In this document: positions 60,122-63,329 of the stretch, in pieces
How positions within the stretch are numbered: the first letter of the stretch is position 1
Layout of the letters: every line of letters begins with the position of its first letter
Assembly: GCF_044324785.1 (NCBI RefSeq)
Contig: NZ_CP172127.1
Length of the DNA stretch: 64,000 nucleotides
Origin: Escherichia coli
GTDB lineage: Bacteria > Pseudomonadota > Gammaproteobacteria > Enterobacterales > Enterobacteriaceae
Direction: 5' to 3' (one strand)
Translations under genes and position numbers: made by a program
Notes under the pieces: model-generated
What the model was told of the DNA's origin: nothing
Databases searched by the model: none
The model's input: only the letters and a program-made list of their open reading frames with translations

Positions 60122-60389
60122 ATGTCACTCCAATGTCCATTTAGTGACGCAATATTTACTTTGGGATAGTTTCCTTGCTTACATTTATCTTTGTTAATAA
60201 TAACACATGTTAGAGAAGTTCTGGAAGAGAAAGTCTTTTAATATGGTTTTTTATTTTTCACTAAAAAGTGTGATCGGGGACAATATATTTACGCACGTTA
60301 TGTTTAAAGGCACTACACTGATTGGGGAATACTGAAATCAGAAAAAGCATATGGCCTTAAAAGGTATGCGATAACCGGAGGATGTGCTT

Positions 60390-60590
60390 ATGGATCATAG
60401 TCTTAATTCTTTAAATAATTTCGATTTCCTGGCGCGTAGTTTTGCCAGAATGCACGCAGAAGGTCGCCCGGTCGATATTCTGGCCGTTACTGGTAACATG
60501 GATGAAGAACATAGAACCTGGTTTTGCGCACGTTATGCCTGGTATTGCCAACAGATGATGCAAACCAGAGAACTTGAATTAGAACACTGA
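60390..60590 (+). CDS. glgS: GlgS (surface composition regulator)
   Basis: ORF 60384..60590 (GTG), start trimmed to ATG 60390: [59 protein letters not shown] aaccggagga upstream. Confidence 0.88.
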
Positions 60591-60624
60591 TATTACGGGC
60601 CGTCTGGCCCGTTTTTGTGTTGCT

Positions 60625-60924
60625 TTATTCTGCTTTATCAATAGGCGGGATAGCCGGAGGAGATTGAAGATCTGCTACCGAATTATTGCGCGCTTCCAGT
60701 TCACTGATGCGCTGCTCTAGTAATGCCAGTTTCTCACGAGTCCGTAACAGGACTTGCGTCTGTACGTCGAATTCTTCGCGGCTCACCAGATCGAGACGCG
60801 TCAGCTGCGCTTGTAGGGTTTGGCGGATTTTTTTCTCCACATCTTCCCCGAACTCCCTGATTCCTTTAGGCATTGATTCGTGAACCTGGCGAGCGATTTG
60901 CTCAATTTTTTTCGGGTCAATCAT
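60625..60924 (-). CDS. ubiK: Ubiquinone biosynthesis accessory factor UbiK (YqiC)
   Basis: ORF 60625..60984, start trimmed to [35 protein letters not shown]; coiled-coil. Confidence 0.8.
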
Positions 60925-61039
60925 TGTAGTTTCCCTGTACTGATAGGTGTTGAGTGCCATTGTAGTGCGATAAGGGTAAGTCATAAACCAGAATTATGTG
61001 AAGCTATGCGTTGCTGCCGCTAATCATTAGCGTTATAGT

Positions 61040-61215
61040 GAATCCGCTTATTCTCAGGGCGGGGCGAAATTCCCCACCGGCGGTAAATCAACTCAGTTGA
61101 AAGCCCGCGAGCGCTTTGGGTGCGAACTCAAAGGACAGCAGATCCGGTGTAATTCCGGGGCCGACGGTTAGAGTCCGGATGGGAGAGAGTAACGATTCTG
61201 TCGGGCATGGACCCG
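61040..61215 (+). promoter_or_regulatory. FMN riboswitch (RFN element) in the ribB leader
   Basis: Conserved RFN blocks agggcggggcgaaattccccaccggcggtaa ... agcccgcgagcg ... ggtgtaattccgg ... gccgacggttagagtccggatgggagaga upstream of ribB. Confidence 0.75.
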
Positions 61216-61297: not shown

Positions 61298-61951
61298 ATG
61301 AATCAGACGCTACTTTCCTCTTTTGGTACGCCTTTCGAACGTGTTGAAAATGCACTGGCTGCGCTGCGTGAAGGACGCGGTGTAATGGTGCTTGATGATG
61401 AAGACCGTGAAAACGAAGGCGATATGATCTTCCCGGCAGAAACCATGACCGTTGAGCAGATGGCGCTGACCATTCGCCACGGTAGCGGTATTGTTTGCCT
61501 GTGCATTACTGAAGATCGCCGTAAACAACTCGATCTGCCAATGATGGTAGAAAATAACACCAGCGCCTATGGCACCGGTTTTACCGTGACCATTGAAGCG
61601 GCTGAAGGTGTGACTACCGGTGTTTCTGCCGCTGACCGTATTACGACCGTTCGCGCAGCGATTGCCGATGGCGCAAAACCGTCAGATCTGAATCGCCCAG
61701 GCCACGTTTTCCCACTTCGCGCTCAGGCTGGTGGTGTACTGACGCGTGGCGGCCATACTGAAGCGACTATTGATCTGATGACGCTGGCAGGCTTTAAACC
61801 GGCTGGTGTGCTGTGTGAGCTGACTAATGACGATGGCACGATGGCGCGTGCACCAGAGTGCATTGAGTTTGCCAATAAACACAATATGGCGCTCGTGACT
61901 ATTGAAGACCTGGTGGCATACCGTCAGGCACATGAGCGTAAAGCCAGCTGA
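61298..61951 (+). CDS. ribB: 3,4-dihydroxy-2-butanone 4-phosphate synthase RibB
   Basis: 217-aa [53 protein letters not shown]. Confidence 0.96.
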
Positions 61952-61984
61952 AAACCGCTGCTTAATTTACTGCCTTAATCAAGA

Positions 61985-62019
61985 AACCGAAGTTGTAGCA
62001 GGCTTCGGTTTTTATTTTT
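61985..62019 (+). terminator. ribB rho-independent terminator
   Basis: Stem aaccgaag...cttcggtt followed by tttatttttc. Confidence 0.65.
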
Positions 62020-62212
62020 CCCTGCTATGTAAGATGTTAATTCCGCTTCTCTTTCTATGAGAAAATTTCATTAATATCAGGCATTCTTTTTCATTATGAT
62101 CAAAATCATATAATTGTTCCGTTATTATGCGACCATATGAATATATCCGAAAAAGGATATGTGAAATTTATGCGCTAAATGTTTAGTATTGTTAAATATT
62201 AAGGGTAAAAGG

Positions 62213-62383
62213 ATGTTTATCGCCTGGTACTGGATTGTATTGATTGCTCTGGTTGTGGTGGGTTATTTCCTGCATTTGAAACGATATTGTCGGGCGTTTC
62301 GCCAGGACAGAGACGCCCTGCTTGAAGCGCGGAACAAATACTTAAACAGTACGAGAGAAGAGACAGCCGAAAAGGTAGAATAA
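62213..62383 (+). CDS. Hypothetical small membrane protein (56 aa, one predicted TM helix)
   Basis: ATG 62213 preceded by aaggg Shine-Dalgarno-like sequence; MFIAWYWIVLIALVVVGYFLHLKRY... hydrophobic helix then charged tail; not recognised. Confidence 0.4.
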   Translation: MFIAWYWIVLIALVVVGYFLHLKRYCRAFRQDRDALLEARNKYLNSTREETAEKVE

Positions 62384-62440
62384 GACTTTAGTGAAGCTGA
62401 CAGAAGTTGTCCATGCGCTGGACAACTTCTGATGTTGCTT

Positions 62441-63214
62441 TTAACCAATTCCCGCCGTTTGTAGCAGCACTAAACTGAATCCCATCACTGACATTCCACA
62501 TAGTACGCCATAGCTGGGGTTATTATTGGGGTCAATCTCTTTGGCGAGCGGCATTAATTCATCAACCGAGAGCGCCACCATAATTCCTGCAACCGCCGCC
62601 ATGATTGCCGCCATGACCACCGGAGAAATCATGCTACCGAGGATTAACCATGCCAGCACACCACCAAGAATTTCTGCCAGTCCGGAAATCCCCGCCCACA
62701 GAATCGCGGTACGTTTCGATCCTGTTGCAGCGTAAACCGGCCCTGCAACCGCCAGACCTTCAGGAATATTGTGCAACGCTACGGCCAGGGCGATACCAAA
62801 TCCCAGCTCCAGGTTGCTGCTCGCCGTGACAAAGGTGGCAATCCCTTCCGGGAAGTTATGCAGACTGATGCCGAGAGTGAGCAGAATGGCTGTGCGCTTG
62901 ATCGATTTTGGCAACGGCTGCACCGATTTTTGCATTAAATCCTGCGGATGTGCATGTGGCAACATGCGGTCTAGACCAAAATAGCCAAGCAGACCGAAGA
63001 TAAACATTCCATAACCCAACACAGGCGACATTCCTTCGGCGGCTAGTGCGGCAGGAAGCATTTCCATTAATGAGATGAGCAACATGATCCCCGCCGCAAA
63101 TCCTAGCGAAAACGCCAGTAAGCGGTTCGAGGGTTTTTGCCCGAGAACGCCGAGAAACGCGCCAATAAACGTGGCTGCCCCCGCCAGTATGGTCAGAATG
63201 AGAGGTACTGACAT
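62441..63214 (-). CDS. zupT: Zinc transporter ZupT (ZIP family)
   Basis: ORF 62441..63256, start trimmed to [22 protein letters not shown] (257 aa). Confidence 0.92.
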
Positions 63215-63329
63215 CGACAACTCCTTATAAATCTTCACCTTCAGGCAGATCGTCAAAATAACTGATGATCATCATCATTGTTATCCGGGTTCTTACTCCG
63301 CCGAACAAGCGTATTGTGAGGATATCAAA

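Follow-up and report, generated by a model that had tools for sequence, protein, structure and literature searches.

yqiD, a conserved gene for a predicted small membrane protein in the ribB–zupT spacer of Escherichia coli

Within the window, a 64,000-nucleotide stretch of an Escherichia coli genome, the short reading frame at positions 62213–62383 of the plus strand is almost certainly yqiD (EcoCyc b4756), an E. coli gene with a translated product of 56 residues. yqiD is a real and conserved gene for a predicted small membrane protein, already named and its product already detected experimentally, and there is nothing new in it as a discovery; having been named, shown to be translated and present in the reference annotation since 2018, it carries no weight in that respect. 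YqiD belongs to the many small proteins of E. coli that have been validated without having an assigned function, and the comparisons reported here provide several handles for its study: a sharply conserved cytoplasmic motif, a conserved palindrome upstream of the gene, and a close linkage to zupT that is nevertheless not universal.

Identity and coding status of the reading frame

When mapped in K-12 J53 and in the strain closest to ours, the RefSeq coding sequence yqiD ('protein YqiD', WP_000469266.1) coincided exactly with window positions 62213–62383, and the 56-residue translation of this interval (MFIAWYWIVLIALVVVGYFLHLKRYCRAFRQDRDALLEARNKYLNSTREETAEKVE) was identical both to the RefSeq protein and to the YqiD sequence in Table 1 of PMC6001520. 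Compared with K-12 YqiD (b4756, WP_000469266.1; PMC6001520), the sequence, the flanks and the coordinates of the coding sequence were all the same, as expected of the same gene in another strain. The preliminary description of this DNA had called the reading frame unassigned, which was mistaken, given the RefSeq entry at the same coordinates and the identical published sequence. A megablast search found the ribB–zupT spacer in 4,432 of 5,426 complete E. coli genomes, and among the records listed every full-length match had 'yqiD: protein YqiD' annotated beneath it.

The name comes from VanOrsdel et al. (2018, Proteomics 18:1700064; PMC6001520), whose Table 1 places yqiD at 3183381–3183551 of NC_000913.3, gives its length as 56 amino acids and lists zupT and ribB as its neighbours. 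In that study YqiD was among the 36 of 80 candidates seen by immunoblotting of chromosomally SPA-tagged strains, was seen in rich medium when made from its own locus, and was also positive in a tetracycline ribosome-profiling screen (PMC6001520). Two of the checks proposed in the preliminary description, ribosome profiling and a comparison with curated small-protein lists, are thereby answered: the first gave a positive signal and the second found the protein already catalogued. The EcoCyc identifier b4756 is cited for yqiD in a 2026 paper (PMC13273102). Most of the literature retrieved under the name 'YqiD' concerns B. subtilis yqiD (ispA) or is a misprint of YqjD, and a literature search combining zupT, ribB and 'small protein' found no paper.

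The frame runs from an ATG at 62213 to a TAA at 62381–62383, as originally described, and the start codon is conserved across the aligned genomes. About 7–8 nucleotides before the ATG lies a Shine-Dalgarno sequence, AAGGG (62201–62205, plus strand), whose AAGG is invariant in 10 genomes and which has GGA/AGG-rich equivalents in distant homologues; the ribosome-binding site that had been judged plausible thus held up. The length of the frame was of no help, because an ATG-initiated reading frame of at least 56 codons arose in 812 of 5000 mononucleotide shuffles (16%) of the 489-nt intergenic stretch, and we discarded length as coding evidence. Instead, we compared the window with loci from the second E. 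coli allele, E. albertii, Salmonella enterica, four Citrobacter lineages and two further relatives. Over ungapped codons 1–42 of these 10 genomes the mean pS was 0.71 (saturated) and the mean pN 0.14, dN/dS was 0.03–0.25 where it could be computed, and the variable alignment columns at the three codon positions numbered 20/15/36. This bias toward synonymous substitution, which had been suggested as a check, favours a real gene. When Intestinirhabdus, Phytobacter and Kosakonia were added, frame +1 alone was free of internal stops in 13 of 13 genomes. Thus, the yqiD reading frame is under purifying selection and, because conservation is decisive where length alone is uninformative, its coding status is settled; the selection also lends indirect support to the synthesis of the protein.

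Other ways of reading the same DNA fared poorly. We rejected a gene in any of the five other frames, on either strand, because stops interrupt those frames in most genomes, and a longer form beginning at a TTG at 62189, because a 1-nt insertion just before the ATG breaks its frame in Salmonella and C. amalonaticus. The frame could also have been a chance opening in a spacer whose true role is non-coding, as a terminator, a leader or a small RNA. In favour of a chance opening are the 16% of spacer shuffles that yield such a length and a nearby sub-threshold match to the Rfam family STnc240 at the ribB terminator; this reading has, however, next to no probability in view of the saturated synonymous sites and strong purifying selection, the single open frame in 13 genomes, the conserved start codon and Shine-Dalgarno sequence, and the experimental sighting of the protein (PMC6001520). 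Moreover, a search of Rfam at a permissive threshold placed no RNA family on the reading frame; its only hits were an FMN riboswitch ahead of ribB and the weak STnc240 match. We regard the reading as effectively refuted already, and the original description of a genuine small gene with its own ribosome-binding site, encoding a predicted single-pass membrane protein, as right.

The locus, its neighbours and the extent of the family

The coding sequence of the upstream neighbour ribB (61298–61951, plus strand), identified as an open reading frame and by the RefSeq annotation of the equivalent positions, is followed by a hairpin resembling an intrinsic terminator (61982–62013, plus strand), with 13 pairs and then the T-run ATTTTTCCCT, which parts yqiD from ribB transcription. 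yqiD begins 262 nucleotides past the ribB stop codon. On its other side lies zupT (62441–63214, minus strand), which was identified in the same way and has a Zip-family gene in the same place in relatives. The placement of the frame downstream of a ribB terminator and convergent with zupT was therefore correctly described. Between the stop codons of yqiD and zupT a 13-bp hairpin (62401–62431) has a predicted folding energy of −24.2 kcal/mol (z = −5.1), and none of 200 shuffles folds as well; it is probably a terminator common to the two convergent genes. In the variant E. coli allele a different hairpin occupies this site.

Some features of the surrounding DNA are recorded here for completeness. 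An FMN riboswitch (RF00050, 120.9 bits) lies upstream of ribB at 61046–61194, as expected and as also annotated in RefSeq. The STnc240 match mentioned above (a Salmonella sRNA family; 61950–62020) scored 29 bits against a gathering score of 55 and overlaps the ribB stop codon and terminator; this stretch at the end of ribB may be a 3′-UTR-derived RNA. Further upstream, glgS (68 aa, 60384–60590) directly adjoins ubiK/yqiC in the window (60384–60984), as it does in strain FHI_NMBU_03. In K-12 the ygiL-yqiGHI fimbrial operon stands between glgS and ubiK/yqiC, and this interval may be another variable fimbrial site nearby.

In Escherichia, Salmonella, Citrobacter, Kosakonia and one metagenome lineage, yqiD is directly convergent with a Zip-family (zupT) gene, beyond which lies ygiD. 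The yqiD homologue of a close E. coli relative is likewise directly convergent with a Zip-family gene, and in Phytobacter a minus-strand reading frame of the same size, matched by size and position alone, occupies the zupT position. Upstream of yqiD the neighbour differs by genome, being ribB, a four-gene chaperone-usher fimbrial operon or an assT-dsbL-dsbI cluster. That zupT is kept in convergent orientation while the upstream genes change suggests a linkage of yqiD to zupT.

The same loci showed further rearrangements. In two distant lineages the homologues (P0117 and P0113; L047 1498–1722, L049 3951–4112 and L050 4001–4162) have as their downstream neighbour ygiC, a glutathionylspermidine-synthase-like gene, with no zupT-ygiD between. 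In both variant-allele strains that we inspected a chaperone-usher fimbrial operon stands directly upstream of yqiD (L051 3697–8650), filling the ribB–yqiD gap in L051, and assT-dsbL-dsbI lies between ygiD and ygiC (L051 11202–14371; in L052 only dsbI and dsbL appear before the end of the locus). In Salmonella and some Citrobacter the assT cluster sits instead between ribB and yqiD. Because the fimbrial and assT clusters are placed differently from genome to genome, the flanks of yqiD-zupT-ygiD seem to be an insertion hotspot. We also encountered an apparent ZupT::YqiD fusion (P0124), in which residues 1–72 of ZupT are in frame with the C-terminal two-thirds of a YqiD homologue and are followed by a convergent zupT 3′ end (L046 1499–1876). 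We set it aside because it occurs on only one metagenome contig, of 2 kb, and the arrangement there suggests that a segment was inverted or wrongly assembled.

The YqiD family is small and confined to a few genera of Enterobacteriaceae. A word-indexed search of 5.8 billion proteins returned 108 clusters and a profile search 149 clusters; an exhaustive profile search of 1.84 billion representatives at 50% identity returned only 24 matches, and a GTDB scan of one genome per species found 30 loci. The named sources were Escherichia (coli, albertii, whittamii and others), Salmonella, many Citrobacter, Intestinirhabdus, Kosakonia, Phytobacter/Metakosakonia and a few 'Enterobacter sp.'; Klebsiella and named Enterobacter species were absent from the named sources in both the GTDB scan and the profile search. 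Several homologues carry the NCBI/UniRef label 'DUF4051 domain-containing protein'. No DUF4051 model in Pfam matched either YqiD or the proteins that NCBI names DUF4051, and the model is probably missing from the release used. Searches of Pfam, NCBIfam, PADLOC and PHROGs gave only sub-threshold matches, driven by the hydrophobic helix, and a PDB sequence search gave no match at an E-value below 0.3.

Within E. coli the gene is a single copy per genome, and it is present in essentially all complete genomes. It occurs there as two deeply diverged alleles, both of 56 residues and about 66–69% identical (L003 2119–2289, L051 9220–9390 and L052 3220–3390), with a dS of ~1.6 between them, equal to the level between genera. 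The K-12-like allele was found in 4,432 complete genomes and the divergent allele in 989 more; the latter (~18% of complete E. coli genomes) is labelled only 'hypothetical protein'.

The upstream spacer and a candidate operator

Between the ribB hairpin and the start of yqiD lies an AT-rich spacer (62014–62212, plus strand; 26–31% GC), which is presumed to hold the yqiD promoter and 5′ leader and whose last ~120 nucleotides are conserved across genera. The sole promoter-like site that we found on the plus strand was TTAATA-18-TATGAT (62071–62100), and such sites are no more numerous here than in shuffled sequence. Overlapping it, ~115 nucleotides upstream of the yqiD start, is the palindrome TATGATCAAAATCATA (62095–62110), whose first hexamer is the −10 element of the predicted promoter. 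The columns of the palindrome are invariant, and it is kept in Escherichia, Salmonella, Citrobacter and Intestinirhabdus whatever gene lies upstream. In 38 of 50 loci ATGATCRAAATCAT precedes the yqiD start by a nearly constant distance, and the variant E. coli allele has ATGATTGAAATCAT at the palindrome site. In the Enterobacter sp. kpr-6 group a related sequence, ATGATCGGTGTCAT, occurs in an otherwise unrelated GC-rich leader. The palindrome looks like an operator, and we treat it as a candidate. Its core resembles a pair of FNR-type half-sites (aTGAT-N4-ATCAt). When we searched the literature for the palindrome sequence, the only papers found were eukaryotic and unrelated. In a scan for TGAT-N4-ATCA we also saw a second palindrome, TGATGATCATCATCA, at window positions 63263–63277 in the divergent promoter region of zupT and ygiD.

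From this layout we infer that yqiD would be transcribed from a promoter of its own in the AT-rich spacer, after the ribB terminator, and that its transcript would end at the hairpin common with convergent zupT. Consistent with a separate transcription unit, yqiD has the ribB terminator upstream and a strong hairpin downstream, and the conserved leader and palindrome persist even though the upstream gene differs between genomes. Two reports bear on its expression. A 2025 preprint names four genes, yqiD being one, whose expression is altered by cis variants according to GWAS, a promoter model and reporter fusions alike. In EAEC 042, three tested genes, with 'orf3334, DUF4051 family' among them, were more highly expressed in an aar mutant; going by the family label, orf3334 would be the yqiD orthologue.

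Predicted topology, proposed function and comparison with known small proteins

The description of a hydrophobic N-terminal helix and a charged C-terminal tail agrees with the residues themselves: residues 2–20 of YqiD (FIAWYWIVLIALVVVGYFL) have a mean Kyte-Doolittle hydropathy of 2.43, residues 21–35 contain 5 K/R against 2 D/E, and a tail of mixed charge follows. The protein has one hydrophobic segment of membrane length with a charge bias at its flank, as in single-pass proteins. The predicted transmembrane helix (codons 2–22, 62216–62278, plus strand) opens with the conserved aromatic stretch W5-Y6-W7 and was delimited by hydropathy, conservation and pLDDT. With an 18-sequence alignment, AlphaFold2 modelled one continuous helix over residues 2–55 with a mean pLDDT of 73, rising to 84–88 over the first twenty residues. 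By the positive-inside rule, YqiD would be a single-pass inner-membrane protein with its N terminus out and its C terminus in, so arranged that ~4 residues would be periplasmic, residues ~2–22 would span the membrane and a helical tail of ~34 residues would extend into the cytoplasm. The papers searched contained neither fractionation nor reporter-fusion results for the protein.

Conservation was strongest just inside the predicted membrane segment. Among 18 close sequences M1, I3, W5, Y6, W7, Y18, H21, K23, R24, A28, R30, D32, R33, D34, A35 and L36 are invariant and C26 nearly so, and the last ~15 residues vary freely. A distant set (30–48% identity) retains A28 and R30 in every sequence and R24, R33 and A35 in nearly all. 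The juxtamembrane motif KRYCRAFRQDRDALL (codons 23–37, 62279–62323, plus strand) is the best conserved part of the family, and pN/pS was 0.14 in the cytoplasmic core versus 0.26 in the membrane helix. Because the lowest pN/pS and the most invariant residues are found there, the motif would be the likeliest functional surface. Cys26 is substituted in the homologues P0078, P0116 and P0117 and His21 is not kept in distant members, and a metal site is therefore not a feature of the YqiD family.

Of the mechanisms considered we tentatively favour one, which we draw by analogy and which still falls clearly short of an even chance: YqiD would be a bitopic inner-membrane protein whose conserved juxtamembrane motif binds a larger protein. 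As in those small membrane proteins of enterobacteria that have been characterised, there would be no catalytic capacity; YqiD would bind a larger inner-membrane or membrane-associated protein and tune the activity or stability of that protein, the contact surface being the motif K-R-Y-C-R-A-F-R-Q-D-R-D-A-L-L and not the membrane helix. To our knowledge, every small membrane protein of this size that has been characterised works through a larger protein to which it binds.

ZupT is a weak candidate for the partner, and the only one suggested by position. On a more specific reading, YqiD would be a dedicated modulator of ZupT, an importer of zinc and other divalent cations, or a metal-responsive partner that uses His21 and Cys26, by analogy with small proteins known to tune transporters. 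The convergent Zip-family neighbour is indeed kept across genera while the upstream neighbour changes, one hairpin is common to yqiD and zupT, the two genes overlap by 4 nucleotides in one locus (L010), and the 18 close sequences keep H21 and C26 without or almost without exception. However, convergent orientation gives no co-regulation, the yqiD family is limited to a few Enterobacteriaceae genera, P0113 and P0117 adjoin ygiC without zupT, the cysteine and histidine are lost in several members, and the adjacency may only reflect a narrow family that never moved. The convergent orientation and the hairpin between the genes rule out co-transcription of yqiD with zupT, and co-regulation with a target, one of the marks of transporter regulators of the MgtS/AcrZ type, is thus lacking for the pair. 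We consider a dedicated role at ZupT unlikely. More unlikely still would be the fuller scheme, in which YqiD, a small membrane protein under regulation, influences metal transport by way of ZupT and has its expression controlled by a dimeric regulator via TATGATCAAAATCATA; if true, zinc import in the Escherichia-Salmonella-Citrobacter group would be tied to oxygen or metal status.

The type I toxins, such as Hok, Ldr, Ibs and TisB, are short hydrophobic peptides whose translation is normally repressed, which have an overlapping or adjacent antisense RNA and which are often present in several copies. YqiD resembles them in being a short hydrophobic peptide encoded by an intergenic gene, and could be imagined as a toxin-like membrane peptide that is kept from translation and damages the membrane when made, a reading to which the charged tail, the conserved leader of ~100 nucleotides and the AT-rich setting would also lend themselves. 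We nevertheless judge it highly improbable. Unlike the toxins, YqiD made from its own locus is readily detected in rich medium, ribosome profiling also gave a positive signal (PMC6001520), and its gene is a single copy per genome. Rfam returned no antisense or toxin RNA family at the locus, neither an antisense frame nor a partner gene is conserved, and the strongest conservation lies in the cytoplasmic motif rather than in the hydrophobic helix.

The proposal that YqiD binds a larger protein can instead be set beside AcrZ, MgtS, MgrB, KdpF and CydX, small inner-membrane proteins of enterobacteria that modulate larger membrane proteins and that were long missed by annotation. Compared with these, YqiD is of similar size, has one predicted membrane helix and has no enzymatic domain. 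It differs from them in sharing no sequence similarity with any of them, in not being co-transcribed with a candidate partner, and in having as its best conserved part not the membrane helix but a charged cytoplasmic motif.
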